A stretch of DNA of 23,612 nt from a virus (IMGVR_UViG_2728369591_000007), one strand, 5' to 3'; shown: positions 4,733 to 23,612, counted from the first letter of the stretch. Translations and numbers: made by a program. Notes: generated by a model from the sequence alone, not told the origin.

Positions 4733-4904
4733 GCCAACAGGAACACCACAACCACAAAAACGCTACAAAGATGCCCACGGAGCACTCGTTACTGTCGAAA
4801 GCGTGTCTCACAACCGAGTGACGTTTTATCGCGACGGGTATCAATCGCCATGCGTACAACCGCTGGCGCGTTTCATGAAGGAGTTCGCGGAGGTTAACCA
4901 ATGA
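4725..4904 (+). CDS. hypothetical small protein, 59 aa
   Basis: ATG at 4725 preceded by GGAGG; overlaps the stop of the upstream gene by 8 bp; sequence MSKPTGTPQPQKRYKDAHGALVTVESVSHNRVTFYRDGYQSPCVQPLARFMKEFAEVNQ. Confidence 0.55.
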   Translation: MSKPTGTPQPQKRYKDAHGALVTVESVSHNRVTFYRDGYQSPCVQPLARFMKEFAEVNQ

Positions 4905-5338: not shown

Positions 5339-5360
5339 GACGCGCCGAGCGTCTTTTTTT
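5339..5360 (+). terminator. Candidate intrinsic terminator (short GC hairpin plus T7 run)
   Basis: GACGC-GCCGA-GCGTC followed by TTTTTTT. Confidence 0.5.
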
Positions 5361-5377
5361 GTGCCGTTAGCCAGACT

Positions 5378-5406
5378 CACACTTTTTTCAGTGATGTGGT
5401 TATAAT
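5378..5406 (+). promoter_or_regulatory. Candidate sigma70 promoter (perfect -10 TATAAT at 5401-5406, weak -35)
   Basis: TATAAT directly downstream of the terminator and upstream of a structured leader and the RBS-led ORF at 5563; the -35 match is poor, so the call is tentative. Confidence 0.3.
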
Positions 5407-5562
5407 CCGCGTCGCTTGCAAAATTATGGTGGGCTGGACAGGGCAGCCGAAAGGCTGGCCGGTTTCCTTGTACGCCGGTACTGCGAACTCTGTTCAGTCC
5501 ACCACCAGCGAGTTTCGCAGCTCCGGTGGTGGGAAGAATTCCCAGTACAAGGAGGCTGCCAC

Positions 5563-5757
5563 ATGCTGGCTACTACCCCTACCCAAAAACCGCAATTTAT
5601 CTGGATTATCGCCGCAGTTCGCCGCGATTGCCCGACAATTACCGCCAAAATTCATCATATTGCTGCCGAGTCTGAACGCGATGCTCGCCGTTCTCTGGTG
5701 CGCGATCACGTCTGCTTTTTTGCTGGTCGTATCCGCATGGAGGTGGCACATGATTAA
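5563..5757 (+). CDS. hypothetical small protein, 64 aa (first gene of the early operon)
   Basis: Strong RBS AGGAGG 7 nt upstream of ATG; translation MLATTPTQKPQFIWIIAAVRRDCPTITAKIHHIAAESERDARRSLVRDHVCFFAGRIRMEVAHD; stop overlaps the next start. Confidence 0.6.
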   Translation: MLATTPTQKPQFIWIIAAVRRDCPTITAKIHHIAAESERDARRSLVRDHVCFFAGRIRMEVAHD

Positions 5758-5968
5758 AACCTACGATGTGCATATGGATCCCCTCGAACGCACAAGCCAG
5801 ATCATCACACTGACAGAAGTGATTAACGACATTCTGGTGAGCAACTCTCCCTCACGAGACGAAAGACTGAAGGCGTTACTCGCGATATTGGATCTCGCCG
5901 TTCGTGACGTTCATTTCCTGCTGGAAGGTGGCGAAATGCCAGGAAAAACGGGGGCAACCAATGAATAA
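5750..5968 (+). CDS. hypothetical small protein, 72 aa
   Basis: ATG at 5750 preceded by GGAGG at spacing 7; translation MIKTYDVHMDPLERTSQIITLTEVINDILVSNSPSRDERLKALLAILDLAVRDVHFLLEGGEMPGKTGATNE; 8-bp overlap with both the previous and the next gene. Confidence 0.6.
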   Translation: MIKTYDVHMDPLERTSQIITLTEVINDILVSNSPSRDERLKALLAILDLAVRDVHFLLEGGEMPGKTGATNE

Positions 5969-6155
5969 CTCAATTAATGCCCCTCGACTTACGTCCGCAC
6001 TTCAATTAATCGAGCAAGCAGCGGCTGTCCTGGTTGCTGTCAGTCTTTCGGCTGAAGAAATGGACGCTGCTGATGTCGTGGATGCGATTAAAGCGTGCTC
6101 ATCTTTGGTTAACGATGCTCGTGCAGAGCTGGTAATTCTTGGTGGTGAAAAATGA
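5961..6155 (+). CDS. hypothetical small protein, 64 aa
   Basis: Internal ATG of the 5904 ORF chosen because of the ATGAATAA overlap with the upstream stop; translation MNNSINAPRLTSALQLIEQAAAVLVAVSLSAEEMDAADVVDAIKACSSLVNDARAELVILGGEK. Confidence 0.55.
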   Translation: MNNSINAPRLTSALQLIEQAAAVLVAVSLSAEEMDAADVVDAIKACSSLVNDARAELVILGGEK

Positions 6156-6415
6156 ATATCAACTTAATTTATCGTCATCCGTGTGAGCTGGAAATTGAAT
6201 CATTGCTGAGCCGTGAAGAGCCATATCCAGACACATTCACTCTTGCAGATCGCACGACTGAACGGCTTACCAGAGCGCGCACAGGTCTGGTTCATGTGAT
6301 GAATGAGATTCTTCCATCGGTGGGAGGGGAACAGGCGACAGTAATCACTAGCTGGCTACAAAAAGTTACCTCTCTGATAGATATCAGTTTAATCGATGCG
6401 GAGAGTGCGAAATGA
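6152..6415 (+). CDS. hypothetical protein, 87 aa
   Basis: ATGA start/stop overlap with the upstream gene (translational coupling); protein-like sequence. Confidence 0.6.
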   Translation: MNINLIYRHPCELEIESLLSREEPYPDTFTLADRTTERLTRARTGLVHVMNEILPSVGGEQATVITSWLQKVTSLIDISLIDAESAK

Positions 6416-6633
6416 CCAACATCCAGCTCATTGAAGCACAATGTCGCATCGAACAGGTTCAGACTGTTTTAGGGTTCTGGCTTGAAGGGGCCAGCCCCAG
6501 CAACAGAGACAAGTTAATGATTGGCGCGGTTATGTCACTGCTCAATGGCGTACCAGAAGCTATTCAGGAAGCAGACGAATTGTTGGGCAAATATGAGTTA
6601 CAGAATCATTCAGGCGAGGCGAAACATGAATAA
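6412..6633 (+). CDS. hypothetical protein, 73 aa
   Basis: ATGA overlap with the upstream gene; protein-like sequence. Confidence 0.6.
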   Translation: MTNIQLIEAQCRIEQVQTVLGFWLEGASPSNRDKLMIGAVMSLLNGVPEAIQEADELLGKYELQNHSGEAKHE

Positions 6634-7228
6634 TTTCTTAACTTTCCATGCAGAAGCAACGCCTGACGGCGTAAACATCATGTACCGCAGCAACGATGGC
6701 ATGACAGAACGCGTTGAGGCCGTCTCATATATTGATGCCGTAAATCGTCTGGATGCCGGGGATTATGACGATAAACCAGATGAAGGTATGTCAATACATC
6801 TCGCTATAGCCGATGGCGGCAACCAGGGATATTTCGATTACACATCACAGCATAACGTCATTATGTGGAGATGGCTGATCGCAACAGTATTCATGCTGGA
6901 AATGAGAGAGGAAAACGGCACTGTCAGCATCATTGATGATACTGGCAATCCTTCCGAAGTGGCTGTTTATTCCAACGGCATCGTCGCCATGCCGCTGTAT
7001 CCAGTAGCAGAGCGCCTCGCTATGGCAAACAACATTGAGGGCGCGATGATAGAACGTTTTGGCATCGAGTCTGGCACAGAACGCGCCATCATTTTCTACA
7101 GAGCCATGATGGATGTGGAACAAGGAGCACTGACTCCATTTGGTCGTGAAACGCTTGCTGAACTTCACAACAGCTTTATAGCTGAACTGAATGAAAACGG
7201 CATGCCAGCGGAACCAGTGACGCACTGA
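6626..7228 (+). CDS. hypothetical protein, 200 aa
   Basis: Start ATG at 6626 (MNNFLTFHAEATPDG...) preceded by GAGG; 8-bp overlap with the upstream stop. The longer track ORF from 6521 was trimmed to this start. Confidence 0.6.
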   Translation: MNNFLTFHAEATPDGVNIMYRSNDGMTERVEAVSYIDAVNRLDAGDYDDKPDEGMSIHLAIADGGNQGYFDYTSQHNVIMWRWLIATVFMLEMREENGTVSIIDDTGNPSEVAVYSNGIVAMPLYPVAERLAMANNIEGAMIERFGIESGTERAIIFYRAMMDVEQGALTPFGRETLAELHNSFIAELNENGMPAEPVTH

Positions 7229-7238
7229 GGATGGAACC

Positions 7239-7580
7239 ATGATTACTAAAAATTTCCGACTGAATGCGCTGGCAAATAAGTATGCGTCGGCACTGTATAA
7301 CCACATTACCTCCACCAGCGGCGGGGACTATTTCATGGTTGATGCGGACGGCGAGGCCGTCCGTGTGGAAATCGTCAATGGAGTAAAAGGCGTTCGCAGC
7401 CTGATCGATAGCTACACACTGGCAGCCATGAAAGTGTTCTACCCGCAGTGGGAAACCGTGGGGATCGAGCTTCTTGATCGTTGCGTCACTAAGGACGGAT
7501 TGACTGACGTCGGGCGTGAGATATGGCAAAGCATGGTTAATGACATGGGCGCAACTGTAGCGGGAGGTTCTCATGCGTGA
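7239..7580 (+). CDS. hypothetical protein, 113 aa
   Basis: RBS GAGG upstream; same operon and orientation as its neighbours. Confidence 0.6.
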   Translation: MITKNFRLNALANKYASALYNHITSTSGGDYFMVDADGEAVRVEIVNGVKGVRSLIDSYTLAAMKVFYPQWETVGIELLDRCVTKDGLTDVGREIWQSMVNDMGATVAGGSHA

Positions 7581-7944
7581 AAATGCAGAAATGGCGCTTA
7601 GCTCCGCAATCGGAGAGCAGGTGGCAAAGATTGCTGGTGCTGTGTGGATTCATAACCTTCATTCTACTGGTGAAGAGAAAATGGCAATTCAGACGCCAGA
7701 GGGACGCACCATTACTACATCTCTGAAGCCGTCAGATGTTTGTGATCTGATTTGCGCATTCATGTACCCAGCAATGAGGACTGCCCACGGCGATAAGTGG
7801 AAACTTGCGACAACCGCTGAATTTGATATGTGGCTAAACAATGATGGCATGCTGACTGATTACGGAATAACCAAGTGGCAGATGCTGGTTAGCCATATCG
7901 CAAACGCTATAGACCACGTGGGGTACGGTGATGCGAAACATTGA
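7573..7944 (+). CDS. hypothetical protein, 123 aa
   Basis: 8-bp overlap with the upstream gene; its own stop overlaps the primase start. Confidence 0.6.
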   Translation: MRENAEMALSSAIGEQVAKIAGAVWIHNLHSTGEEKMAIQTPEGRTITTSLKPSDVCDLICAFMYPAMRTAHGDKWKLATTAEFDMWLNNDGMLTDYGITKWQMLVSHIANAIDHVGYGDAKH

Positions 7945-10687
7945 TCTTATCCGTCAGGTTATCAGTGCGTCTGAAAACAACTGGCCTCATGTGCTGGGCT
8001 GCCTGAACATAAATGTCCCTGACTCTCCGCGCCGTCATGCTCCCTGCCCTGCATGTGGGGGCAAAGATCGATTCCGGTTCGATGACAACGGGCGCGGTAG
8101 CTTCATCTGTAATCAGTGCGGCGCTGGTGATGGGCTGGATTTAATTAAACGCGTAAATAACTGCGACACAACAGAGGCGGCGCTTCTTGCCGCTGATGTT
8201 CTGGGTATTGATTACCGGACAACGGAAACACCAGAAGCCACCAGCCAGAAACGGGAACAACTGGAAACCGAGCGCCAGCGACGCGAACAGGAGCGCCTGA
8301 AAAGGGCAGAGAAGGACGAACAACAAAGACGGGATACGTTTTCCCGTCAGTTTGATGACATGCGCAGAAAGGCTGTAAACGGCAAATCTGATTATTTGGT
8401 TGCGAAAGGGGTAGGTGATTTTACATTCCCCGTGTTGCCCGATGGATCTCTGTTGCTGGCGCTGGTGGATAAATCCGGCGCAGTAACAGCAGCACAGACT
8501 ATTACCTCACATGGTGAAAAAAGACTCCTGACAGGTTCAGCAAAGCGGGGGGCATATCACGCCATAAACGCACCAGAAACAACACAGAGCATCTTAATCG
8601 CAGAAGGGCTGGCAACGGCATTATCTGCCCATTTAATTCGTCCAGAGGCGCTGACAGTGGCGGCGATTGATGCCGGGAACCTGTTATATGTCGCCCAGGT
8701 ACTGCGGGATAAATTTCCTTCAGCACAAATCATCATTGCTGCGGATAACGACCACAGCGAAGGAAGACAAAACACGGGGAGAATAGCAGCAGAAAAAGCA
8801 GCTTTATCTGTTTCTGGATGGGTGGCATTACCCCCGACAGATCACAAAGCAGACTGGAATGATTACCACCAAAAACACGGCATTAAATGCGCCACAGAAG
8901 CGTTCAATAAGTCAATGTACCAACCACAGGGTAATGGCGTGAAACAGGAGCCACAGACCATTGAGGGAAGCGATTTTAAGGTTATGGATACCGACCCACT
9001 GAAACCAAGAATAGAAAGCCGCGAGGATGGTATTTATTGGGTATCTCCGAGAGCTGACAGCCAGAGTGGAGAAATCATCAATAACGAAAGCTGGTTATGT
9101 TCTCCGTTAAGCGTTATCGGTACTGGCAGAGACGATAAAGACCAGTATCTCATTCTTCGCTGGCTGTCGTTTGGTTCTGAAACGCCGACAACCGCTGCCA
9201 TTCCACTGGCTGATATTGGTGAACGTGAAGGATGGCGCACACTTAAAGCTGGTGGGGTAAATGTCACGACCAAAAGCAGCCTCAGAGCAATGCTGGCAGA
9301 CTGGCTACAACGCAGTGGCTCTCGTGAATTGTGGCGTGTTGCTCATGCCACTGGCTGGCAATGCGGAGCGTACATCATGCCTGATGGGGAAATCATCGGA
9401 ACACCTGAAAATCCTGTGCTGTTCAGCGGGAGAAGCTCAGCCGCAGCCGGATATACCGTCTCAGGGAGCGCGCAAAGCTGGCGTGATAACGTGGCGCGTC
9501 TGGCCTTTGGTAACTATTCAATGATGACCGGGATCGGCGCAGCACTGGCAGCACCATTGATTGGGCTGGTGGGCGCTGACGGGTTCGGCATTCATTTCTA
9601 TGAGCAGTCGAGCGCAGGTAAGACCACCACGGCAAACGTGGCGAGCAGCTTATACGGCAACCCTGATTTACTGCGGCTGACGTGGTACGGAACCGCGCTG
9701 GGGCTGGCAAATGAGGCCGCCGCCCACAATGACGGACTAATGCCGCTTGATGAAGTTGGTCAGGGCGCTGATCCTGTCAGCGTTTCACAGTCTGCCTATG
9801 CGTTATTTAACGGTGTAGGGAAACTGCAAGGCGCTAAAGATGGTGGAAACCGGGATCTAAAACGTTGGCGTACAGTGGCAATCAGCACCGGAGAAATGGA
9901 TTTAGAAACATTTATCGCTACTTCCGGGCGAAAAACCAAAGCCGGGCAACTGGTGCGACTGCTGAATATTCCGTTGACTAAAGCAGTACGCTTTCACGAT
10001 TACCAGAACGGAAAACAGCACGCAGACGCACTGAAAGACGCTTACCAGCATCACCACGGCGCGTCCGGGCGTGAGTGGATTAAATGGCTGGCAGACCACC
10101 AGCAACAGGCTATTAAAACCGTTCGTGATTGCGAAAGCAGATGGAGAAGCCTGATCCCATCCGATTATGGTGAGCAGGTTCACCGTGTAGCCGCGCGATT
10201 TGCCATTCTGGAGGCCGCATTGTTGTTAGGCGAGGTTGTAACAGGCTGGGATGCTCAGACATGCCGTGATGCGATACAGCACAGCTATAACGCATGGTTG
10301 CGCGAGTTCGGCACAGGTAACAAAGAGCATCAGCAGATTATTGAACAAACGGAGGCATTTCTTAATGCCTATGGGCTTAGCCGTTTTGCACCATTTCCAT
10401 ACAGCCCGGCAGATTTGCCCATCAAAGATTTAGCCGGATACCGTCAGCGTGGAGAACATGACGAAAGCCCAATGATTTTCTACACATTCCCGGCCACATT
10501 TGAAAAGGAGATCGCATGTGGTTTCAACGCAAAACAGTTTGCTGAAGTGTTGAAAAAAGCCGGGATGCTAACCCCACCAAACAGCGGTCGTGGATACCAA
10601 AGAAAATCACCACGTATTCAGGGACGACAAATAAACGTTTATGTACTCAATTACCAGCCAGGAGATTATAACTCATCTGAAGAATGA
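7928..10687 (+). CDS. replicative primase-helicase, P4 alpha-like (zinc ribbon + TOPRIM + P-loop NTPase), 919 aa
   Basis: Zinc ribbon CPACGG-x17-CNQCG; TOPRIM-like IIAEGLATALSAH and IIIAADNDHSEG; Walker A-like SSAGKTT and Walker B-like LMPLDEVG; iteron cluster immediately downstream. Confidence 0.85.
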   Translation: MMRNIDLIRQVISASENNWPHVLGCLNINVPDSPRRHAPCPACGGKDRFRFDDNGRGSFICNQCGAGDGLDLIKRVNNCDTTEAALLAADVLGIDYRTTETPEATSQKREQLETERQRREQERLKRAEKDEQQRRDTFSRQFDDMRRKAVNGKSDYLVAKGVGDFTFPVLPDGSLLLALVDKSGAVTAAQTITSHGEKRLLTGSAKRGAYHAINAPETTQSILIAEGLATALSAHLIRPEALTVAAIDAGNLLYVAQVLRDKFPSAQIIIAADNDHSEGRQNTGRIAAEKAALSVSGWVALPPTDHKADWNDYHQKHGIKCATEAFNKSMYQPQGNGVKQEPQTIEGSDFKVMDTDPLKPRIESREDGIYWVSPRADSQSGEIINNESWLCSPLSVIGTGRDDKDQYLILRWLSFGSETPTTAAIPLADIGEREGWRTLKAGGVNVTTKSSLRAMLADWLQRSGSRELWRVAHATGWQCGAYIMPDGEIIGTPENPVLFSGRSSAAAGYTVSGSAQSWRDNVARLAFGNYSMMTGIGAALAAPLIGLVGADGFGIHFYEQSSAGKTTTANVASSLYGNPDLLRLTWYGTALGLANEAAAHNDGLMPLDEVGQGADPVSVSQSAYALFNGVGKLQGAKDGGNRDLKRWRTVAISTGEMDLETFIATSGRKTKAGQLVRLLNIPLTKAVRFHDYQNGKQHADALKDAYQHHHGASGREWIKWLADHQQQAIKTVRDCESRWRSLIPSDYGEQVHRVAARFAILEAALLLGEVVTGWDAQTCRDAIQHSYNAWLREFGTGNKEHQQIIEQTEAFLNAYGLSRFAPFPYSPADLPIKDLAGYRQRGEHDESPMIFYTFPATFEKEIACGFNAKQFAEVLKKAGMLTPPNSGRGYQRKSPRIQGRQINVYVLNYQPGDYNSSEE

Positions 10688-10712
10688 GATTCTTCATGTG
10701 CGTAGAAAAGGT

Positions 10713-10823
10713 GTTGGTTCAGTTGGTTCAGTTGGTTCAATTTGTAAAGAGTATTGTTTTATAAGGATTTTATTCTTTTTATTGAACCAACACTGAACCA
10801 ACAACACGGTATTTTGAACCAAC
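10713..10823. repeat. Iteron cluster 1 (candidate ori): 3 tandem GTTGGTTCA, AT-rich spacer, 3 inverted TGAACCAAC
   Basis: GTTGGTTCA at 10713-10721, 10722-10730, 10731-10739; TGAACCAAC at 10783-10791, 10794-10802, 10815-10823; begins 26 bp after the primase stop. Confidence 0.7.
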
Positions 10824-11143
10824 ACAATGTGACTGAATTGATGCGCACAACACCTGGCTGGCATCAGAGAGTGTTTTACGAGACTTTCGTAAAATCCTGT
10901 GTACAAGGGCGTGACGTTTTTGAAAGTGAGCACTACGAAATTTTCGTAGTTCAAAAAACAGCCTCTGAGAAGTTGTTATGCCTGTTCAGCAAACCATCCG
11001 CATAGCTGATCGCGAATCAAATTACCAATGGAGCCAGAAGCAAGGGCAGAACTGAAAAGCGCCTGCCGTGAAGAGTAATGCGACACCATAAATATAGTTT
11101 TTAGAGTCCATAAAAAACCTGTCAAAACCTGACACACAGAACG

Positions 11144-11177
11144 ATGCCACCAGCTACTGAGCGGTGGCATTTTTTTG
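11144..11177 (+). terminator. Candidate intrinsic terminator ending the early/replication operon
   Basis: ATGCCACC-(11-nt loop)-GGTGGCAT followed by TTTTTTT. Confidence 0.6.
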
Positions 11178-11271
11178 TGCTATTTGTTTCATATTTTGCA
11201 ATTACGATGATGAATATTGCGATTTGTGAAACTATAATAACTGTTGTTTTATACAGTTCTAAGGGGGCGTT

Positions 11272-11433
11272 ATGGCTATTTCAGTAAAGCCGGTATTGAT
11301 AAGTGAGAAGCAAATGGAAGCGATAAAGAAAATTCAGGAAGAGCAGCGTAAAAAATCAGGAATTGGAGTAGCGCCAACTCTGCATGAAATTGCACGAGGG
11401 TTAATAGATAAGGCGCTGGCAGGCTGTATGTGA
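11272..11433 (+). CDS. small protein, 53 aa, possible ribbon-helix-helix-like regulator (speculative)
   Basis: Below the track's length cutoff; ATG at 11272 with SD AAGGGGG upstream; TATAAT at 11233-11238; translation MAISVKPVLISEKQMEAIKKIQEEQRKKSGIGVAPTLHEIARGLIDKALAGCM. Confidence 0.45.
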   Translation: MAISVKPVLISEKQMEAIKKIQEEQRKKSGIGVAPTLHEIARGLIDKALAGCM

Positions 11434-11449
11434 AAATGGATGGCATCGC

Positions 11450-11911
11450 ATGGAACTAAAATTTATTGATAACCCTGTGCGATTACAGGCCTTTCTTAAC
11501 GAGCCAGGCAATACCGAAAATATTGTTGAGCCGGGGCACACGTACTACATCAAGCCTGATGCGGTATATCTCGGCATCTACGAAGGATTAGTGCTGGCTG
11601 GCGTTCATGAAGTGCGTAACTTCTGGCATAGCGTTGTTGAATGCCATGCGGTGTACGACCCCGGATTCCGTGGTGAATATGCACTGCAAGGGCATCGATT
11701 ATTCTGCAAATGGCTTCTCGAAAACTCACCATTCCTTAACAGCATTACCATGGTTCCTGACACCACCAAATACGGACGGGCAATTATCCGTTTGCTTGGC
11801 GCTACCCGTGTTGGTCACCTTGATGATGCTTATATCAGATGTGGTAAACCCGTCGGCGTAACGCTTTATCAGTTAACTCGGCAACAATATAAGGAATTCA
11901 GCGAATGTTAA
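11450..11911 (+). CDS. hypothetical protein, 153 aa (first gene of cargo cassette)
   Basis: Co-directional with, and overlapping, the next gene; protein-like sequence; no family recognised. Confidence 0.6.
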   Translation: MELKFIDNPVRLQAFLNEPGNTENIVEPGHTYYIKPDAVYLGIYEGLVLAGVHEVRNFWHSVVECHAVYDPGFRGEYALQGHRLFCKWLLENSPFLNSITMVPDTTKYGRAIIRLLGATRVGHLDDAYIRCGKPVGVTLYQLTRQQYKEFSEC

Positions 11912-12582
11912 TTACCCACATAGCTCATAAACATCTCAATCGTGCCGTATACGAAAAAGGCGGTGATGGTGGTGCCTCTAAAGCTCAGGCGAAGGCCCAG
12001 CAGCAGGCAATTGATTTGCAGCGCGAGCAGTGGAATACGGTGATGAATAATCTCAAGCCGTATGCAGAAGTCGGATTGCCTGCTTTACAACAACTACAAG
12101 GACTGATGACTCTGGAAGGGCAGAATAAAGCCGCGAATGATTTCTTTGGTTCTGGTTTATATAAAACACAGGCAGATCAGGCCCGTTATCAGAACCTTGT
12201 CTCAGCAGAAGCTACCGGGGGGCTTGGCTCAACAGCTACCAGTAACCAGTTATCTTCCATTGCGCCCATGCTTTATAACAATTGGCTTAGTGGGCAAATG
12301 CAAAATTATGGAAACCTGCTAAATGTCGGGATGAATGCGGCATCAGGGCAGGCAACAGCAGGGCAAAACTACGCCAATAATACCGGACAACTCTTGCAGG
12401 GGCTTGGCGCTATTCGTGCAGGTCAGGCGCAGCAGCCATCCAGTCTTGCGCGTGGTATTGGTGGGGCAGCATCAGGCGCTTTAGCGGGTGCGCAACTTGG
12501 TTCCGTTGTTCCTGGAATAGGTACTGCGGCAGGCGCTATTGGTGGTGGGCTTATTGGTCTTGTTGGGGGGCTTGGATTCTAA
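11905..12582 (+). CDS. Gln/Gly-rich protein with C-terminal glycine-zipper hydrophobic segment, 225 aa (ejection/pilot-protein-like)
   Basis: C-terminus GIGGAASGALAGAQLGSVVPGIGTAAGAIGGGLIGLVGGLGF; stop overlaps the next start (TAATG). Confidence 0.6.
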   Translation: MLITHIAHKHLNRAVYEKGGDGGASKAQAKAQQQAIDLQREQWNTVMNNLKPYAEVGLPALQQLQGLMTLEGQNKAANDFFGSGLYKTQADQARYQNLVSAEATGGLGSTATSNQLSSIAPMLYNNWLSGQMQNYGNLLNVGMNAASGQATAGQNYANNTGQLLQGLGAIRAGQAQQPSSLARGIGGAASGALAGAQLGSVVPGIGTAAGAIGGGLIGLVGGLGF

Positions 12583-13901
12583 TGGCGACATGGCAACTTG
12601 GCGGGCTGCCTAGCATGGCACCGCAAAATGATAATGCTCCTCGTTCTTCCGTTCCTCAGCCTGTGCAGTATCAGCAGCAGCCAAACGTAGGTTTAATGGC
12701 GCTACAGGGGCTAAGAGGCGTTGCTGAGATTAATCAGCAGGCGCAAATTTCCCAGCAGCTAAAAGAATATCAGGCACAGTTGGGTAGTGCGGTAGCTAAT
12801 AATGATCGTGTTGGCGTGCAGAAGTTAATGGCCCAGTATCCCCAGTTTATGGCTGATTCTCAAAAACAGATGGGATTCATTGATGCTGAGCAAAATCGGC
12901 AGACCGCTGACGCTGCCATGAATCTGCGTCTTGCGTCACAAACTGGAGATCCACTGACCATGCAGAAGGCCATTCAGCAGGCAAATCCAGTATTACAGCG
13001 ATTTGGTCTTCCTGCTGAAGAGGTTTATCAGTCTTGGCAGAATGACCCACAGGAATTCAACAGAATCACTGACCTCATCCACCTCCATGCTGATCCAAAT
13101 AGTTACTTTAGTGTTCAAGAGAAGCAGCAAGGGCAGAGTATTGCACAGCAGAACGCAGATACATCTGCATATAATGCTCAGGTTAATGCGGAACAGGGTA
13201 ATCGGCGTCTCGATATGGAGCAGTTCAAAGTCCTATCCGATAACCAGCTACGCACGAGAGAAATGGTTCTGAAAGCACGACTTGGACGTGCTCAAAATGA
13301 CATCGAGAGAGACAAGCTCAATGCTGAACTGAGCAAGGTACAGCAGGCGAAAGTGGAGAAGATGAACGATAAAATTAATACTGTTGCAGGTAACATCGAC
13401 TCCTTGAACTCTGCGCTTGAAGTGGGTCATGAACTGGCGGGAATTGTAGGGAAACATCCTTCGGCCGTTACCCGTTCGCAGAACTATAACCCCCTGACGC
13501 TGGGGTTTGGATTCCTTCCTGATGTAGCAGAAGACACACGAAGCCTACGCGCCAAAGCTGATGAATACAACCTAAAGGTTATTCTGCCTAGCCTCAAAGG
13601 GACTTTTGGCTCTAACCCAACCGAAGGGGAAAGGGCTGCCCTTATGCAATCTCAAAATGGCATTAAGTCAGCAACCAGCAATGAGGCATTTTTGCGAGAG
13701 TTGAATAAAGCGCAGGACGTAATTATTCGAATGCAGAAACGACAGATTGCCGGGCTCGGTATTCCTGTAACCAAATCTAAGGACGAAGAAACTGATACTA
13801 AAATGCTGTTGCAGGATCCTTCTCTGGTTAAGGATTATGTGACCGCACATGGCTATCTGCCGGAAAGTTACTATCAGGCAAAACTTAAGGGATGGCAATG
13901 A
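12582..13901 (+). CDS. Gln-rich predicted coiled-coil protein, 439 aa (internal-virion/ejection-protein-like)
   Basis: Long Q/A/N-rich helical-looking sequence; translationally coupled to both flanking genes. Confidence 0.6.
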   Translation: MATWQLGGLPSMAPQNDNAPRSSVPQPVQYQQQPNVGLMALQGLRGVAEINQQAQISQQLKEYQAQLGSAVANNDRVGVQKLMAQYPQFMADSQKQMGFIDAEQNRQTADAAMNLRLASQTGDPLTMQKAIQQANPVLQRFGLPAEEVYQSWQNDPQEFNRITDLIHLHADPNSYFSVQEKQQGQSIAQQNADTSAYNAQVNAEQGNRRLDMEQFKVLSDNQLRTREMVLKARLGRAQNDIERDKLNAELSKVQQAKVEKMNDKINTVAGNIDSLNSALEVGHELAGIVGKHPSAVTRSQNYNPLTLGFGFLPDVAEDTRSLRAKADEYNLKVILPSLKGTFGSNPTEGERAALMQSQNGIKSATSNEAFLRELNKAQDVIIRMQKRQIAGLGIPVTKSKDEETDTKMLLQDPSLVKDYVTAHGYLPESYYQAKLKGWQ

Positions 13902-16618
13902 TGGCACAACTGACAGAAAAACAGAAAGCCTATTCCCGTCATCTCGATGAAAAATATGGTTTCCCATCAGGGACGATGGAAACATTAGTTGGCAATGAAT
14001 CTAGTGGTAACGGAAGTGCCGAGTCACCGAAAGGAGCTAGAGGATTTGCTCAACTGATGCCCTCAGTAATGAGTGATGCTGGTTATCGTGGAACAGATCC
14101 GCGCTCACTGCCATTTGAAAAGCAAATGGATATCGCAGCAAACCATCTCAATAAAGGAATGAAGCGATTTGGTGATATAGGTATGGCATTGGCTGGGTAT
14201 AATTCTGGCTATGCTCGTATTAATGCCGTAAGAAACGGTAAATCTACACTGCCAGATGAAACGGCTAATTACGTAAGTAAATTTGCAGATGCCGGAATAA
14301 TCCCTGATGACAGTGAAATCTTGCAGTTTGCACAAACCAGTCAACATCGCAATCTTCAGCAGCCTGACTACTCAGAGCTTGATAAAGAAATCTCTCAGGT
14401 GGGAGATATTTCTGCATGGGAAGCAAAACGTCAGCAATTTAAGAACATAGAAGCAGGACTACCAACAGCCAGTTCATGGGAGCAGAAAAGAGCTCATTTT
14501 CTCGCCGATGAAAATGCCGGGGAACCGCAGCAGCAAGTAGCCAAGTCTAACCTTAATCCTGAGATGGAATATCTTTCGCCAGGACTGAAAGCTGCGCCAG
14601 AGCAGATGGCCAGAGGGATTGCTAATATACCGTTTGATGTAATGGACGCAGGCGTGGGGGTAGTCAATGCGGCGCAATCAGCCGGAGCATGGGCAGCTCA
14701 GAAGCTTGGTGTGGGTGATGGTACATACACGCCCATATCACCTGTCTTTCGCCCAGTAGACCAACCTACAGATCCATACGCGCAGGCTGGTGAGCAGCTA
14801 GCACCTTACCTTATTACAGGATTAGGTGCAGGAAAGGCAGCTACCGCAGCTTCTTCAGTTGCCAACGCTCCACGTGCTGAACGTGCGGCCACAAAGGTGG
14901 CTAGTATGTTGGCAGAAAACCTGCCAGGTACATTGGTGAACGCCCAAAAGAACGGGCAGATCAGCCCAGAAGACCTAGCAAAAGAGACAGGTATTGGCCT
15001 AGCAGGATCGCTAGGAGCACGCGCTTTAATAAAGAGCGGACAGACAGCCAGTGACGTAATGCGAGATGTATTGCGGAGTAATACAAATCAATCAAGCTAT
15101 GTGTTAGGGGCAGCAAATACTCTGGAAACCGCCAATGATGTATCGAAAGCAGCGCGTTCTGCCGTAGGCCGAGAGCATATCGCATCGCAGGCATCAAACG
15201 TCAGAGATGATGTCGCTAAGGCGGCGAAAATCACTGGTATTAATATCAACACCCTGACGCCTGGAATGCGCTCAGGTAGTCGTGGAATTGCCCAAGCAGA
15301 AGGTGTTCTGGCATCAACTCCTGGGAATGTTCAGGATGCTCACCTTACGGCCTTCAATGAAATATCCTCAAAGTTGAATAAGCAGTTGTCTGATTTCGGT
15401 GCTGAGTCTGGAAGCGCATCAGAAAAAAGCGCAGCAATTAAAGAGCGCATCATCGCGAGCCTCAGTGATATGAAAACAGCAGAGAATATGGCATGGGCAG
15501 AACTGCGAAGCACGATGCCACGCGAAAGGATGAAAATGAGTAATGGGATGGCTGTCGTCCAAGCAGAAAAAGCAGCCAATGTTCCACTCAGCCCGGAGAT
15601 GAAACAGTTTCAGGCTGCCAATAACCAAGGTGGCGGCATAACCTTCGACGGGATGAAGGCATGGCGTGCTAAGTTTGCTGATGCTGAACAAGCAAACACC
15701 CGGGCAGGTAAGGCCAATGCCGCCCGGGTTGCCGGAGAAATGCGCAGAGCTATCACTGATGACATGCGCATCATGGCTGAAAAAGGAAACTTCCTCACAG
15801 AATGGCAGAAAGCTAACGATCTCTCTAAAAGTTACATTATCGCCAAACAAAATGCCGAATCTGTTTTTGGTCGAGATCTCGCATCAGACGCTATGGTAAG
15901 AAAAGGTGCCGATACGCTTAAGGCATCCGCAAACACTGGAACGGGAGCTTTTCACCGTCTTATCTCCGCGCTGCCGGAAGCAGAACGCCAACCAGCAATA
16001 GCATCTATTCTTCAGCATGCTGTGGCGCAGGGAGAGAAGGGAGGAATCGGTGAAGAGTCTGGTATCCAGTATTTTGCCAAGCTCATGACCCAGCAGAATG
16101 TAAACGCCATCAGTCGTCATGCGCCAGATCTCGGTAGAATGATGAAAGAGTTCGGTGTACTCGCTAAAGCCAGCACCAGACCGCAGCGATACGTAGAGCG
16201 CACGGGAAGAACAACTGAGGCTCTCAAAACGCTCGATTCAGGCCTTCCAAAGATCGTCGGCGTGATTATGAACGGAGTTCAACAGTCAGGTGCGATCGCT
16301 GGAGGCTTTGGCGGTGGTGTAATTGGTTCGATTAGTGGTTTGGTTGCTGGTGGCGCGCTGAGAAATACTGTGGCTAAGATTGGGGCGACAAGAAGTGGTC
16401 GATATGCGATAGAGAAAGCCGTTCAGGAAGCTACAAAAGCAGTGCGCGCAGGGGCATCACCAGCAGCGATCGCCGCAGCAGAGAAACGATTTTCGGCCAA
16501 TAAAATTGCCATGAAAGCAATTCGTGATGCCGTTGGGGCTGAAGAATTCGTGAAACTGACAAGGGCCGGGATTGTAGCTACCCTCAGTGGCATGAAAGAT
16601 GTTAGCGAATGGGAATAG
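13892..16618 (+). CDS. large protein with N-terminal lytic transglycosylase (SLT) domain and C-terminal glycine-rich hydrophobic segment, 908 aa
   Basis: SLT family signature near the N-terminus: catalytic E-S in GNESSGN, GFAQLMPS, and AGYNSGYAR; C-terminal GAIAGGFGGGVIGSISGLVAGGAL; architecture recalls podovirus internal core proteins of the T7 gp16 class. Confidence 0.7.
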   Translation: MAMMAQLTEKQKAYSRHLDEKYGFPSGTMETLVGNESSGNGSAESPKGARGFAQLMPSVMSDAGYRGTDPRSLPFEKQMDIAANHLNKGMKRFGDIGMALAGYNSGYARINAVRNGKSTLPDETANYVSKFADAGIIPDDSEILQFAQTSQHRNLQQPDYSELDKEISQVGDISAWEAKRQQFKNIEAGLPTASSWEQKRAHFLADENAGEPQQQVAKSNLNPEMEYLSPGLKAAPEQMARGIANIPFDVMDAGVGVVNAAQSAGAWAAQKLGVGDGTYTPISPVFRPVDQPTDPYAQAGEQLAPYLITGLGAGKAATAASSVANAPRAERAATKVASMLAENLPGTLVNAQKNGQISPEDLAKETGIGLAGSLGARALIKSGQTASDVMRDVLRSNTNQSSYVLGAANTLETANDVSKAARSAVGREHIASQASNVRDDVAKAAKITGININTLTPGMRSGSRGIAQAEGVLASTPGNVQDAHLTAFNEISSKLNKQLSDFGAESGSASEKSAAIKERIIASLSDMKTAENMAWAELRSTMPRERMKMSNGMAVVQAEKAANVPLSPEMKQFQAANNQGGGITFDGMKAWRAKFADAEQANTRAGKANAARVAGEMRRAITDDMRIMAEKGNFLTEWQKANDLSKSYIIAKQNAESVFGRDLASDAMVRKGADTLKASANTGTGAFHRLISALPEAERQPAIASILQHAVAQGEKGGIGEESGIQYFAKLMTQQNVNAISRHAPDLGRMMKEFGVLAKASTRPQRYVERTGRTTEALKTLDSGLPKIVGVIMNGVQQSGAIAGGFGGGVIGSISGLVAGGALRNTVAKIGATRSGRYAIEKAVQEATKAVRAGASPAAIAAAEKRFSANKIAMKAIRDAVGAEEFVKLTRAGIVATLSGMKDVSEWE

Positions 16619-16768
16619 ACGCTCTAACTAACAAAACCATAATAGCCAAGGACGGCATACTGATATTGAGCCAACTATCAAAATTCCATATCACATTACG
16701 AGCCTGTGGCTTACATTCGCTTACAGTGATGATAATTTATAACCACGCAATTCTTAGGTGAGATTATC

Positions 16769-17467
16769 ATGATTAAAAATCTTCTTTTAATATTATCCCT
16801 GTCATTATTGGCTGGATGCGTACAAAAACCGTTAGTAACGGTCAATGCTTTATCTTCCGGGCAATCTGTCGGTAAGAAGTTCTTGATCATCCCCGCAAGC
16901 CAAGAACTTTGGAACACCAAACAGATTGAATACACTCAAATAGCTACGGTAGTAGCCGCCAGTTTATCAAGCCAAGGATATACACAAGTTAAAGATGAAA
17001 AATTGGCTGACCAGGTAATTCTCTTGAACTTTTTGAGAAGCGGGGCCATTTCAAATACTCGTAATGTAACCATCCCAATATACGGGCAAACTGGTGTGAG
17101 CTCAGCAACAACGTACGGAAACTCGAACACCACGTTCAATAGTTATGGTGGTGGCTACGGTACAGCTAATACCACTGGAACGGCAACAACAGTTTATACG
17201 CCTACTTATGGAATTACTGGCGCGTATAACACAACTGTGACGGACACGTTCTACGGCGCAGGGGTGATACTCCAGTCGTTTGATGCCAAGGCCTATCTCA
17301 ATAATAGGCAGATTAATATGTTATGGAAAGTTGGTAGCTCAGTCGTCTCGCAACAGTCTGATGGAATTGCTGATTACAAGGGGTTGGCGAGAATAGCCGC
17401 TAGCTATGCCGGGAAAAATACAGAAGGTGATATAACTTTTAATGTTGACCCTAAAGCACCAAATTAA
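16769..17467 (+). CDS. lipoprotein, 232 aa, Thr/Gly/Tyr-rich low-complexity mature region
   Basis: Signal peptide with lipobox MIKNLLLILSLSLLAGC; RBS AGGTGA at spacing 8; intrinsic terminator immediately downstream. Confidence 0.7.
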   Translation: MIKNLLLILSLSLLAGCVQKPLVTVNALSSGQSVGKKFLIIPASQELWNTKQIEYTQIATVVAASLSSQGYTQVKDEKLADQVILLNFLRSGAISNTRNVTIPIYGQTGVSSATTYGNSNTTFNSYGGGYGTANTTGTATTVYTPTYGITGAYNTTVTDTFYGAGVILQSFDAKAYLNNRQINMLWKVGSSVVSQQSDGIADYKGLARIAASYAGKNTEGDITFNVDPKAPN

Positions 17468-17473
17468 CTAATA

Positions 17474-17495
17474 AGCCCGGTACGCCGGGCATTTT
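17474..17495 (+). terminator. Intrinsic terminator after the lipoprotein gene
   Basis: GCCCGG-TACG-CCGGGC hairpin followed by ATTTTG. Confidence 0.6.
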
Positions 17496-17680
17496 GCCCC
17501 CTATTATTCATGAATCGCTTTTTCTAGAAGGTATGCGACAAACGTTAAGTGACATTGCCTACACATTCGGGGCGGGATTTCAAATCCGCTCCCAGTTGAT
17601 GGGGCCGTTACAGTACGCGCATATCCGCTTTATGTGAAACAGGAAGATTTTTCTGATATCACTGCCACAGCAAAACACCA

Positions 17681-17703
17681 ATTTCGAGACAAGTACGCGC
17701 GCG
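17681..17703. repeat. CG-alternating 23-bp repeat, copy A
   Basis: ATTTCGAGACAAGTACGCGCGCG; followed by the 20-bp palindrome GTTGCAAAAAATTTTGCAAC at 17714-17733. Confidence 0.6.
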
Positions 17704-17966
17704 AGGGGTATCAGTTGCAAAAAATTTTGCAACTACGTCCGACCAATACACACACGATGGCGGGGGATACCATAAAACTGTTCTCTACATGAGACAGAGT
17801 GGTGGTGATGTGTTGATTATCGGCCTATATGCGCACAGGACGCGCTATGACAATGTTTTATGCGGGTACACCAATCACATGTATCTGGTGTGATAAATCG
17901 CGTTACATGACCTCTCATGTTGTGCTGGTGGTTATCACGACGTTCTGAATCTGGCTTTTGTCTGAT

Positions 17967-17989
17967 ATTTTGCGACAAGTACGCGCGCG
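17967..17989. repeat. CG-alternating 23-bp repeat, copy B
   Basis: ATTTTGCGACAAGTACGCGCGCG; shares the upstream TCTGATAT with copy A. Confidence 0.6.
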
Positions 17990-18326
17990 TAACATCGAAA
18001 TTATCGGATGGCGTATGTTGCTGGCAAGATAAAGTCGGCGTAATACAAAGGCGTTACTTGATAGCAGCAAGATTACAACAATGGTTGTTGAATTTGAGCG
18101 ATGTAAGGAATTGATTTAGGGAGGCGCTGATGGCTAAAAAGTTCCACTACCAGCGGATGAATGCGCCAGCGATGGCCGTTTGGTAGTAAAAGAGGAGCCA
18201 TTCCTCAATCAGTTGAATACATTATGCCAACTAAATGGGTGGGGGCACTGTGTGGGTATTCAGCGGTGACGGTATTTTTTAAGCCAAGGACTATCCGTAG
18301 CAGGGGGACTCATTTTGAAATATTTA

Positions 18327-18764
18327 TCATATGTAACTTATTATTTTAGATAAAGATTTCCAGTTAAAGAAAAAAGTTATCATTGATATAATCAAATATG
18401 CCCCTGCGAGTAGCAGGGCATAATAATCCAGAGGCAGATTGCTGACAACAGGGGCAAACATCGAGATCATTGCTAATAGGCAGGCTGTGATCAGCGTAGT
18501 TCCTGTATCAAAAAGCCCCTCAATAATGCCTTTTAGTACTCCGTTACTTTTTAGAGCGCCTACAATTCCCTTTGAACTATCAAAGCTACTTAGCATGGTG
18601 ACTGATGCCAAAACAAAACCAAAGAGAACTCCAGAAATAGTTGAAAGAGCACCAGCAGCCGAAATGACAGCATTGTGATCTAGGTCGTGTAAAAAATGGG
18701 CACCAGCAATAGCCATAGCTAGAGCAAACAATGACTTGGCAGCAAACAATTTCCGAGAACTCAT
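18327..18764 (-). CDS. small integral membrane protein, 145 aa, about four predicted transmembrane helices (candidate effector)
   Basis: Translation MSSRKLFAAKSLFALAMAIAGAHFL...LLAGAYLIISMITFFFNWKSLSKIISYI is dominated by hydrophobic segments; RBS AGGA 8 nt upstream; 12 bp downstream of the 361-aa gene on the same strand; AT-rich by eye. Confidence 0.7.
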   Translation of the reverse strand: MSSRKLFAAKSLFALAMAIAGAHFLHDLDHNAVISAAGALSTISGVLFGFVLASVTMLSSFDSSKGIVGALKSNGVLKGIIEGLFDTGTTLITACLLAMISMFAPVVSNLPLDYYALLLAGAYLIISMITFFFNWKSLSKIISYI

Positions 18765-18776
18765 AATGTATTCCTG

Positions 18777-19862
18777 TTACGTTTGACTAACCAAATAGTA
18801 CTGGGTTAGATACCTAAGGTTGTCATTCTTTGCTTGTAGCATAGCATTTTTAACGTCAGTATCGGTCGGATACCCATCTGCTTGGATAGGCACCATCTTC
18901 TTTACCGTAAGAACTTCGTCTACAAGACTTTTCTTCTTTTTATCGCCCTGAGCAACAACATTTGCTTTCTCAAAAGTTAAACGACCATCACCACCAGGGA
19001 ACTTTTCTAGCATCTCCTTAAGGCTTTTTTTAACGTCATCCTCAAGCCATCCCTTTGCTTTTCTTTTTAATGGAGAATGTCCGCGTAACGAAATAGTCAG
19101 GTGGCTTGAACTGGTGCCTCTGATCATCTCAATCATCTGATTCGCGAACATTCCATCGAGTTGATACTGTGCGGCATTGAAGTTTCTTGGGATGGCCACA
19201 GAAATCTCGCAGCTTCTTAGATTGGATCCAGTTTCGAGTAGTTCTTTGATGCTTTCTTCTTTCCAAATGGCTTCAAAAGAAACAGGGACTCCGCGATCAC
19301 TGGAGTTGAAAAGAAGGAAGGCTAAGTCACTATGGCGTGGACCTAAATGATTTAAAGACAATACTAGAATGTCTGTCTGAGGATAATAAATAAAGTATGT
19401 ACGTTCTGAAAGAGTCTTTGCCCCGGCTAGAGGGATTTTCTCTTCCACCCACTCTTTATCTGTAATATATGCCAGTGTTGCGCTTTTTCTTCTTCGAGAC
19501 ATGAATCCGAAGTAGGAGCCATCCTCGGGTGAGATGTCTAGAAAATGAATTTTAAGTTCTCTTTCACCAAAGTCTGCATAGTGGGTCATCTTGAAGTCTT
19601 TAGAACACCGATCATAGAGATTTTTAAAGGCCTCTGCGGTTAACCCCTTGTTACTAGTGCGAATATTCTCAGAGCTTGTGTAAAAGCCCACCCTTACAGA
19701 TTTCAAACTTTGATCTTTTGGTGCCACAGTCATTTGAGCTCCATTGTACTCTGCGATAGTTTTTGCACACCTTGAAATCAAAATCTCCATGTCAGTCACG
19801 AGAAAATAACTATGGATGAAACCCATCAAAGGCATTGAATACAGGTGGCTTTTGAGAATCAT
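18777..19862 (-). CDS. hypothetical soluble protein, 361 aa (possibly about 316 aa from an internal start); candidate sensor partner of the membrane protein
   Basis: Long minus-strand ORF with protein-like composition; an alternative ATG at MTVAPK has a better SD (GGAG); no family recognised; AT-rich by eye. Confidence 0.7.
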   Translation of the reverse strand: MILKSHLYSMPLMGFIHSYFLVTDMEILISRCAKTIAEYNGAQMTVAPKDQSLKSVRVGFYTSSENIRTSNKGLTAEAFKNLYDRCSKDFKMTHYADFGERELKIHFLDISPEDGSYFGFMSRRRKSATLAYITDKEWVEEKIPLAGAKTLSERTYFIYYPQTDILVLSLNHLGPRHSDLAFLLFNSSDRGVPVSFEAIWKEESIKELLETGSNLRSCEISVAIPRNFNAAQYQLDGMFANQMIEMIRGTSSSHLTISLRGHSPLKRKAKGWLEDDVKKSLKEMLEKFPGGDGRLTFEKANVVAQGDKKKKSLVDEVLTVKKMVPIQADGYPTDTDVKNAMLQAKNDNLRYLTQYYLVSQT

Positions 19863-20213
19863 CCTAACCTGGTGACGGTGGTTCGCATATCCTGATGGAT
19901 GATCAGTGATTAATCAATGCGCCAAGCAGATGTGTCTATGTGTTTGTTAATCATTGCATGACAGTAGATCGACATGGGAGATCACGTTATATAGTTGAAT
20001 TGTTAGGATATCCATGCACCGATCAACTGACTAGGCTGATGTGCTTTTTAGCAGGTGCCATATAGTAGTTAGGCGGTTCTGTGAAATGATTACTGTTCCA
20101 GCATAACTGCGGCATAAAGCGGTGCTATATAAGCTATTTGCTGGCGGATTTAGTCTTCACCGTTCATATATGTAGTGACTATTTGACAGAGTGTTAGTTC
20201 ACGGACACTTTTT

Positions 20214-20313
20214 GTTGGTTCAAAATGAGTTGATGTTGGTTCAATATTTTAGAAAAAACACAATAAAAACAACGCTCTTTACAAATTGAACCAACTGAAC
20301 CAACTGAACCAAC
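20214..20313. repeat. Iteron cluster 2 (crr-like second site), mirror image of cluster 1
   Basis: GTTGGTTCA at 20214-20222 and 20235-20243; TGAACCAAC tandem at 20287-20295, 20296-20304, 20305-20313; the spacer shares ATTTGTAAAGAG..TTGTTTT with cluster 1 in reverse complement. Confidence 0.7.
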
Positions 20314-20349
20314 ACCTTTTTGCTTATCTATATAATCTGAGAGGCAGAA

Positions 20350-20631
20350 ATGATAAGGGACAGGAAAGCTGAAGAGCTGGAGTCAAAAGGGCTATACCGG
20401 AGAGCTGCCGCACGATGGATGGAAGTCATGCTGTTATGCAGCGAGGACGATGATCGGGAATGGATAAAGCGCCGCCGTGAAACGTGTCTGGAGAACGTGA
20501 AGCGCCCGCCCGTGAAGGTTGAGGAATTTGGCGACCTGCATAAAGCTGTTACCGAAACGCAACACCGCATGGGGATAGCGCAACCGAACGGTAACGCCTT
20601 CCGGTTAAATGGCGGCAAGAGGCAAAGGTAG
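20350..20631 (+). CDS. PerC-like small transcriptional regulator (tentative), 93 aa
   Basis: N-terminus MIRDRKAEELESKGLYRRAAARWMEVM resembles PerC-family proteins from prophage-like elements as I remember them; TATAAT at 20331-20336 and GAGG RBS upstream. Confidence 0.45.
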   Translation: MIRDRKAEELESKGLYRRAAARWMEVMLLCSEDDDREWIKRRRETCLENVKRPPVKVEEFGDLHKAVTETQHRMGIAQPNGNAFRLNGGKRQR

Positions 20632-20928: not shown

Positions 20929-21114
20929 ATGACACCACGCGAAATAGCCTTATTGACCATCGCCAAACTTGAGCACGGAGGCCACCAGCTTACACAGGCA
21001 GATCAACGGGAGATAGAACGATCAGTTAATGCCGATATAGCCCGGCGCGACAGGTTCCGCGAAATGATGCGAGCACCTGCCTACCAGTGGAAGAAGCCAG
21101 CGCCGCGCAGGTAG
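20929..21114 (+). CDS. hypothetical small protein, 61 aa
   Basis: RBS GAGGG upstream; translation MTPREIALLTIAKLEHGGHQLTQADQREIERSVNADIARRDRFREMMRAPAYQWKKPAPRR. Confidence 0.5.
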   Translation: MTPREIALLTIAKLEHGGHQLTQADQREIERSVNADIARRDRFREMMRAPAYQWKKPAPRR

Positions 21115-22247: not shown

Positions 22248-22270
22248 ATGGGGGTACTTTTGGGGGTATC
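22248..22270. repeat. Second copy of the integrase-proximal GGGGGTA direct-repeat pair (candidate right-end arm sites)
   Basis: ATGGGGGTACTTTTGGGGGTATC matches ATGGGGGTACTTATGGGGGTATT at 1557-1579 with identical 12-bp spacing; TCCTATTATC, identical to tRNA positions 1428-1437, lies at 22331-22340. Confidence 0.5.
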
Positions 22271-23250: not shown

Positions 23251-23612
23251 TTTGCCAGCCGCATCGTGTTCTTGGAACTCTGACAGACCTGAGAGTTGGC
23301 AGAATAAACAGGGGATAACAGAACGGTTATCCCCTCAGTACTCTACTGCTCGATCAAACATTTGCTCCATAAAGGTTGGATCGCATGTCGATCTTTGCTG
23401 TAGGGGAATCTTTTATTTTTTTTCTTCTGTTCCATCAGTAATGTGTCGATTTCGTTGTTGACAATGCGCGTCACAGCGTGACGATAACGGTTTAGCGATG
23501 TATCACTGATATCCTGAGGCAGGCATAAACTGGTATCGGTTTTGATGCGTTCATTTATGCGGTAATGACTCCAACTTATTGATAGTGTTTTATGTTCAGA
23601 TAATGCCCGATG

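Follow-up and report, generated by a model that had tools for sequence, protein, structure and literature searches.

We analysed a stretch of viral DNA of 23,612 nucleotides (IMGVR_UViG_2728369591_000007; the whole stretch is hereafter the window), which holds a phage satellite of the Gram-negative phage-inducible chromosomal island (PICI) type, integrated at a tRNA-Thr gene of Escherichia coli. Two mirror-image clusters of a 9-bp iteron lie 9.4 kb apart in this island, one (A) directly downstream of rep, the gene for the primase-helicase, and the other (B) just before perC. Our comparisons indicate that A and B are probably the two halves of one PICI replication origin, split at its centre of symmetry by about 9.4 kb of phage late genes and further cargo that the satellite has captured. 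Judged from its sequence, each half keeps the defining feature of origins in PICIs and Staphylococcus aureus pathogenicity islands (SaPIs), that is, opposed iteron sets around a putatively meltable AT-rich stretch. The structure is genuine and can be understood once relatives are compared, as the halves of a bipartite PICI origin parted by a cargo zone.

All 11 exact copies of GTTGGTTCA in the window sit in the two clusters, 10713-10823 and 20214-20313. Their parts are as follows.

10713-10739: half A, tandem set, three copies of GTTGGTTCA without gaps
10740-10782: half A, AT-rich spacer of 43 nt, 16% GC, starting with ATTTGTAAAG
10783, 10794 and 10815: half A, spaced set, TGAACCAAC at each position, in steps of 11 and 21 bp
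10706-10831, no strand: putative origin half A in its full extent, directly downstream of rep
20193, 20214 and 20235: half B, spaced set, a degenerate GTTAGTTCA at 20193 and GTTGGTTCA at 20214 and 20235, with a 21-bp period
20244-20286: half B, AT-rich spacer of 43 nt, 21% GC, finishing with CTTTACAAAT
20287-20313: half B, tandem set, three copies of TGAACCAAC without gaps
20186-20320, no strand: putative origin half B in its full extent, the mirror of A, from the repeat pattern and conservation in 16 loci

The overall GC content of the window is 47.6%, against the 16% and 21% of the two spacers. When one mismatch to GTTGGTTCA was allowed there were 16 matches, compared with 5.6 ± 2.4 expected, and none of 100 shuffled sequences reached 16. 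A repeat finder returned 10706-10760 and 20266-20320 as an inverted repeat of 55 nt (96% complementary), and 10789-10831 and 20206-20248 as a second inverted pair of 43 nt (79% complementary). The tight tandem triplet is the outer element in both clusters. The clusters are real, non-random and in true mirror orientation. A model-generated description of the sequence (the original prediction) had reported two mirror-image clusters 9.4 kb apart, the first made of three tandem copies, an AT-rich spacer and three more copies, and the sequence, the shuffles and the inverted-repeat arms bear this out. It had also called the second cluster the reverse complement of the first with about 12 bp of shared spacer. 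The mirror layout holds, but the forward copies in B are two exact and one degenerate rather than three exact, and the non-iteron sequence common to the arms is longer, with about 21 nt in the spacer and 7 nt in the outer flank. Close relatives (L001, L088 and L069 compared with 10713-10739 of the window) carry 2, 3, 4 and up to 7 tandem iterons in half A, which suggests slippage during replication of the 9-bp array.

The iterons were then related to the protein encoded next to them.

7928-10687, + strand: Rep, a 919-aa primase-helicase with Zn-ribbon, TOPRIM and DUF927 helicase domains (Pfam)
about 10385-10660, + strand: Rep C-terminal region (about residues 820-911) that tracks iteron specificity, from column-wise covariation

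Rep residues 403-814 matched PDB entry 8tch_A, 'Pathogenicity island protein', at E = 3.3e-12 in phmmer, with 5dgk at E = 0.012, and the helicase core is homologous to that of SaPI Reps. Rep is accordingly predicted to be a relative of the SaPI Reps, a self-loading primase-helicase with TOPRIM and DUF927 domains. We compared 77 loci encoding Rep homologues (one genome per species), together with a set of E. coli loci and contigs from IMG/VR; loci are designated by L numbers. Within this Rep family there are at least seven iteron types (GAACCAAC, AGACAACA, TCGGTTCA, ACGGGTTA, GAACCGAC, GTCGGGTA and GTGGGTTA). Across all iteron types, every element that has both halves carries the same iteron in A and in B; the split locus L049 has a distinct iteron, AAACCGAC, and this is also the iteron of its B. 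On the Rep tree the iteron types interleave. Binned identity along Rep was too coarse to locate the specificity region, which was found by column-wise discrimination. Between AGACAACA-type and GAACCAAC-type Reps, all seven discriminating alignment columns fall at residues 824-911 of 919, and for ACGGGTTA-type Reps 23 of the 26 discriminating columns fall at residues 769-908. These patterns point to recognition of the 9-bp iteron GTTGGTTCA by the C-terminal 100 or so residues of Rep; iteron identity follows the Rep C-terminus, as expected of the DNA-binding domain of an initiator. Since the iteron covaries with the Rep C-terminus and the halves always share it, both clusters stand as candidate primase-helicase sites, in line with the original prediction, and we think it likely that both are cognate Rep-binding origin modules.

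Comparison with relatives showed how the two clusters belong together. In the window and in all of about 60 homologous loci alike, A begins about 26 nt past the rep stop codon. In about 28 of the 60 Rep homologues from Enterobacterales, A and B are contiguous and form a single block of 260-340 bp that starts about 25 nt past the rep stop (examples are L006, L007, L009, L011-13, L031 and L053). Such a block consists of tandem iterons, an AT-rich spacer, three to five spaced iterons of opposite orientation, one or two iterons turned back, a second spacer and three mirrored tandem iterons, and it is followed by a conserved TTTTG(C/T)TTATATA motif. L006, from a capsid-forming E. coli PICI, has a contiguous origin built with the window's own iteron, and its second spacer shares homology with the spacer of the window. 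In the split form A (about 110 bp) follows rep and B (about 120 bp) lies 0.15-10.3 kb downstream. This form was found at L020, L027, L028, L033, L042, L045, L049, L056, L062, L067, L068 and L069, and in the IMG/VR contigs L105, L120 and L124. It occurs in the lineage of the window (an E. coli family at thrW) and in at least 12 other species, and a second split family of E. coli, with a different integrase, occupies the yicC-dinD site. When split origins with the AGACAACA iteron were sought in IMG/VR, almost all matches were spurious low-complexity sequence, and the one real origin (L135) was contiguous. The origin module is present in 525 of 5426 complete E. coli genomes (about 10%), with a median of two copies per genome.

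At least three times the Rep tree pairs a split form with a contiguous one as its sister (window/L011, L020/L053 and L027/L047), and the junctions differ between lineages. In the window's family the left junction lies close to one short motif.

10854-10861, + strand: CTGGCTGG motif, which recurs in the middle of contiguous origins

Homology of the window's family to contiguous origins passes through CTGGCTGG and ends a few nucleotides later. Elsewhere, perC (L020, L028 and L033) or ssb (L062) begins right after A, inside the A-B interval, and in L042, L068 and L056 half B keeps one additional inner iteron. The sister pairs and the lineage-specific junctions together suggest that the centre of the origin has been repeatedly opened, or refilled by recombination. 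The best explanation of these sequence comparisons is that contiguous A plus B after rep, the most common form, is also the ancestral one. An exact Chi site, GCTGGTGG, overlaps CTGGCTGG at the left breakpoint in L042, L045, L048 and L068 (about 25 nt to the right of A in L042 and L068); the corresponding sequence of the window, 10854-10863, is CTGGCTGGCA and is not Chi. Chi at the breakpoint may have a bearing on recombination in the middle of the origin, or its presence there may be a coincidence.

Half B shows signs of selection. In an alignment of B from 16 loci in at least 10 genera, the iterons, the AAAACAA..TCTTTACAAAT spacer motif and the TTTT..TTATATA motif were 70-100% conserved, and the 12-nt linkers between the spaced iterons were effectively random. 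Conserved iterons and spacer motifs beside randomised linkers indicate purifying selection on B. The spacers of A and B are 66.9% identical within one element and 66.6% identical between elements. These values are equal, so the 55-nt inverted repeat of the window reflects a family-wide consensus, ATTTGTAAAGA..TTGTTTT, that both copies happen to match; the idea that a recent duplication or a gene-conversion event made A and B alike was rejected on the same grounds. The ATTTGTAAAG motif is retained in B but not in A in several loci, for example L020, L028, L033, L062, L056 and L006. Just left of B, a direct repeat, GTAAGACAGTGTAAGACA, is conserved in L027, L028, L033 and L067, which represent four genera, and the window lacks it; another regulator might bind there.

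Several observations weigh against a split origin in which both halves work. Twelve loci have A without B within about 10 kb of downstream sequence, so that B may not be needed, or may be situated at a greater distance. In L004 (E. coli SCU-306; coordinates 5516-8010 and 15981-16101) rep and A have been replaced by a DUF5906 replicase, and B persists. This replicase has iterons of its own, CCTGTACCAC and CTATACCAC, and the orphan B, with GTTGGTTCA, lies upstream of perC. The B-perC region of L004 is 98.6% identical over 1045 bp to that of L088, which has the cognate Rep; the swap is therefore recent and says little on the long-term need for B. A profile of 12 sequences of the Rep C-terminal domain had no match in PDB, and a single-sequence AlphaFold model of this domain reached a pLDDT of 40 and was unusable. 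Finally, action between A and B over 9.4 kb is suggested only by analogy. The A-only loci and the orphan B of L004 would fit an arrangement in which A alone works as the origin and B is a leftover half, stranded by cargo insertion and with no present function, and A by itself satisfies the published definition of a PICI origin (PMC9371898 and PMC6092414). We nevertheless consider a functionless B quite unlikely, given that its iterons and spacer motifs are kept across genera while the linkers are randomised, that ATTTGTAAAG survives in B where A has lost it, and that the split B of L049 carries that locus's own iteron, AAACCGAC.

The sequence to the right of B raises a different alternative.

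20317-20336, + strand: T-rich/TATA motif TTTTTGCTTATCTATATAAT, from the alignment, at a fixed distance from the B tandem iterons
20350-20631, + strand: PerC-family regulator, the first gene right of B (Pfam PerC, E = 1e-30)

A TTTTGCTTATATA(T/A) motif, conserved in each of the 16 aligned loci, follows the B tandem iterons at constant spacing, and this T-rich/TATA motif could be a promoter -10 element or a part of the origin. B might thus serve mainly in transcription control, with its tandem iterons abutting a TATA-rich promoter of the right-end operon (perC onward) that Rep would switch, and with its resemblance to an origin secondary. Plasmid iterons often double as operators. The ORFs upstream of perC (18327-18764 and 18777-19862) are on the opposite strand, so that perC needs a promoter of its own, and a TATAAT at 20331-20336, within the conserved motif, stands shortly before the perC ATG. 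However, this TATAAT is very near the Shine-Dalgarno sequence and the ATG and would leave a leader of only about 7 nt, and scans for sigma-70 consensus promoters at A and at B, including 19800-20400, predicted none. Transcription control also leaves the spaced iterons and the AT-rich spacer of B unexplained. The B module is present within contiguous origins as well, where read-through from rep could suffice, and in L004 perC is kept with an orphan B beside a non-cognate replicase. We regard transcription control as the main role of B as doubtful. A promoter role can coexist with an origin role, and a Rep-sensitive promoter at B is a live possibility. The original prediction had hinted at coupling between replication-protein binding and transcription of perC. 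The gene right of B differs among relatives, being perC, a homologue of the window's 61-aa ORF 20929-21114, ssb or others, so the link is to whichever gene comes next and not to perC itself; with no sigma-70 consensus at hand, what stands of this proposal is a possible promoter, given the conserved TTTTGCTTATATA.

Inverted arms could also act as a switch that flips the 9.4 kb of cargo by recombination, as the original prediction had suggested. A 55-nt inverted repeat with 96% complementarity is present, and 55 nt is close to the shortest length that supports recombination by RecA. We searched with a synthetic chimera in which the reverse-complemented DNA to the left of B was fused to rep-A, and scored genomes that covered at least 80% of this query. 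None of the 527 E. coli genomes that partially matched the query reached this coverage or spanned the junction. The cargo genes have one orientation in every relative, with the ejection-protein genes co-directional with rep. Pfam scans of the window ORFs revealed no serine recombinase or invertase, and the sole recombinase was the island integrase. The likeness of the arms, moreover, is that of the family-wide consensus and not of homogenisation within one element. The inversion switch was therefore rejected, and we consider it highly improbable as an explanation of the inverted clusters; rare inversion events within a population are possible.

Returning to the split origin, we suggest that after induction and excision Rep would load at A and at B. 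Either both halves would then fire as origins, or B would stimulate A through Rep-mediated looping, much as crr acts on the P4 ori. That B is required for replication, or fires in it, across the 9.4-kb gap is a tentative proposal that we place between unlikely and doubtful. As a side effect, A and B, both conserved, mark the bounds of a slot in which relatives carry different cargo. A stronger version would make the A-B gap a dedicated cargo slot built into the origin. Both halves would be active and would communicate or fire across the insert, the late genes would be copied first and most, and A and B would serve as portable homology arms for cassette exchange among satellites of the same Rep specificity. 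We consider this version unlikely; if true, phage satellites would have a way of organising their origin and acquiring cargo that has so far not been described.

The content of the interval was examined on the basis of the following features.

10882-20190, no strand: variable cargo ('late zone') between the origin halves, from similarity breaks in E. coli relatives
11450-16618, + strand: P22-like virion module (Pfam DUF2824, P22_gp7, Inj_translocase and SLT; PHROGs 651, 598, 917 and 770)
11450-11911, + strand: gp14-like head morphogenesis gene of the P22-like module
11905-12582, + strand: gp7 homologue of the P22-like module
12582-13901, + strand: gp20 homologue of the P22-like module
13892-16618, + strand: gp16-like DNA transfer protein of the P22-like module, with a fused N-terminal SLT transglycosylase
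16769-17467: cargo ORF of 232 aa, no Pfam or PADLOC match
18327-18764, - strand: cargo ORF of 145 aa, PHROG 8552 (unknown function), no Pfam or PADLOC match
18777-19862, - strand: cargo ORF of 361 aa, PHROG 7651 (unknown function), no Pfam or PADLOC match

E. coli relatives of the L087/L088 type resemble the window only up to about 10881, 58 nt beyond A, and in many E. coli genomes the resemblance returns at 20191 or 20213, the left edge of B. These breaks agree with the earlier claim that the clusters bracket variable cargo. The contents vary among relatives and strains, yet a block of ejection proteins is usually present. In the window the cargo begins with a complete P22-type block 14-7-20-16, that is, head morphogenesis and three ejection proteins, in the P22 gene order. 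Related islands carry divergent gp20 and gp16 alleles. No description of satellites that supply their own ejection proteins turned up in the literature searched. PADLOC gave no defence-system match for the cargo ORFs without assigned function. The pair of 145- and 361-aa ORFs recurs in islands at two different att sites, on the strand opposite to the remaining island genes.

Ubeda et al. reportedly described SaPI and PICI replication origins together with Rep self-loading helicases. The window resembles such systems in an origin directly 3' of rep, in opposed short iteron sets around an AT-rich region and in a homologous helicase core. PICI and SaPI origins lie directly 3' of rep and have two iteron sets around an AT-rich region (PMC9371898 and PMC6092414), and in SaPI Reps, which are self-loading helicases, a C-terminal winged-helix domain reads the iterons just downstream of rep on both sides of this region (Qiao et al. 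2022, PMC9371898). Iteron specificity in the window's family likewise appears to map to the Rep C-terminus, as judged by covariation. Unlike these systems, the window has what is probably a double origin, of two mirror-image units 9.4 kb apart with cargo between them, and its iterons are 9-mers rather than penta- or hexamers. The literature that could be searched described only a single compact origin and no split or distant second PICI origin module. If both halves work kilobases apart, PICI replication would not be confined to a compact rep-proximal origin.

A further comparison is with EcCICFT073, the model PICI of E. coli, in which a pri-ori segment can sustain the replication of a plasmid (Fillol-Salom 2018, PMC6092414). 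The window has the same backbone order, int-alpA-...-pri-ori-(ssb)-perC-late genes, and the experimentally validated origin region of EcCICFT073 has mirrored tandem iterons at both outer ends that point inward. EcCICFT073 differs in its primase, which is of another family (584 aa), in its iteron, TGTCTACC, and in its contiguous origin of about 230 bp. Its late genes (capsid and decoration) follow perC, whereas those of the window lie within the origin. The position of the variable late-gene zone inside the window's origin bears on helper-gene capture, amplification and timing, and the A and B signatures provide precise landmarks that delimit the cargo in this satellite family.

The alpha primase-helicase of P4 is said, in work of Flensburg and Calendar from 1987 and of Ziegelin et al. 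from 1993, to bind both ori and crr. The original prediction had likened the two clusters to ori and crr. The likeness holds as a functional analogy, one primase-helicase with two distant iteron clusters. Both satellites have iteron clusters several kilobases apart and a multidomain primase-helicase whose N-terminus combines Zn-ribbon and TOPRIM and whose C-terminal region binds iterons (predicted in the window), and C4/isrK RNA, Ash and AlpA are also present in the window. Membership in the P4 group did not hold up. The P4 type I iteron TGTTCACC had no match in the window, and Pfam detected no Sid, Psu or Delta family among the 30 window ORFs scanned, which were of 60 aa or more. Unlike in P4, the helicase domain is DUF927/SaPI-Rep-like and not of the D5 type, the C-terminal domain matches no PDB entry by sequence, and the clusters appear to derive from a contiguous origin and mirror each other, P4 crr being a pair of direct 120-bp repeats. 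On this comparative evidence the design is not of the P4 type and is that of a normally contiguous bipartite PICI origin, now split. In plasmid R6K, looping by the pi protein brings iterons of the gamma origin together with the alpha and beta origins, which lie far away. R6K shares with the window one initiator and iteron sites kilobases apart, and gives a precedent for origin activity at a distance; it differs in its unrelated initiator, its plasmid setting, its requirement for host DnaA and IHF, and its lack of mirror symmetry. If A and B do work apart, they would offer a tractable second case, beside P4 ori/crr, of action at a distance by a primase-helicase initiator.

The island itself is about 20.7 kb long and lies beside proA and tRNA-Thr; the same element is found at this site in 41 E. 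coli genomes. The remaining backbone features are listed here.

1369-1444, + strand: tRNA-Thr (CGT), the integration locus adjoining proA (ARAGORN, Rfam tRNA and RefSeq annotation of relatives)
1610-2824, + strand: island tyrosine integrase (Pfam Phage_integrase, Arm-DNA-bind_3 and Phage_int_M)
3252-3455, + strand: AlpA regulator, a hallmark of Gram-negative PICIs (Pfam Phage_AlpA, E = 7e-20)

From left to right the order is integrase, AlpA, AntA-type antirepressor, Ash, several small ORFs, Rep, A, cargo, B, perC, a PRiA4_ORF3-family gene and the right end. The backbone genes up to and including rep are all on the + strand. Gram-negative PICIs have the order int-alpA-...-pri-ori-(ssb)-perC, with late genes downstream (PMC10111431 and PMC6092414). 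The window element is a Gram-negative PICI-type satellite in its size of about 20.7 kb (Gram-negative PICIs are islands of 10-20 kb; Fillol-Salom 2018) with int at one end at a specific att site, in its alpA and rightward gene order, and in the position of its origin directly 3' of rep.

A P4-type, CI/seqA-like immunity RNA pair lies within the ash ORF on the + strand, isrK at 5282-5359 (69 bits) and the C4 antisense RNA at 5422-5509 (81 bits), both identified with Rfam. Gram-negative PICIs also carry C4/isrK RNAs (PMC10111431), and so this pair does not discriminate a P4-like element from a PICI. The ash ORF (4901-5968) also contains a 107-bp stretch, 5049-5155, that is about 91% identical to terS of P22/Sf6-like podophages (IME10, Dewey, CurroJimenez and others). 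This stretch might serve as a captured pac site, allowing a helper phage to package the island, and together with the P22-like virion genes of the cargo it gives indirect hints of helper-phage packaging. An exact att core could not be defined; the search gave only an imperfect 22-nt direct repeat, ATGGGGGTACTT(A/T)TGGGGGTAT, close to both island ends (1557-1578 and 22248-22269). This repeat lies within the arms proximal and distal to the integrase and could be an arm-type integrase site instead of the core. The right edge of the window, 23552-23612, runs into a copy of IS1 (InsB) just beyond the island.

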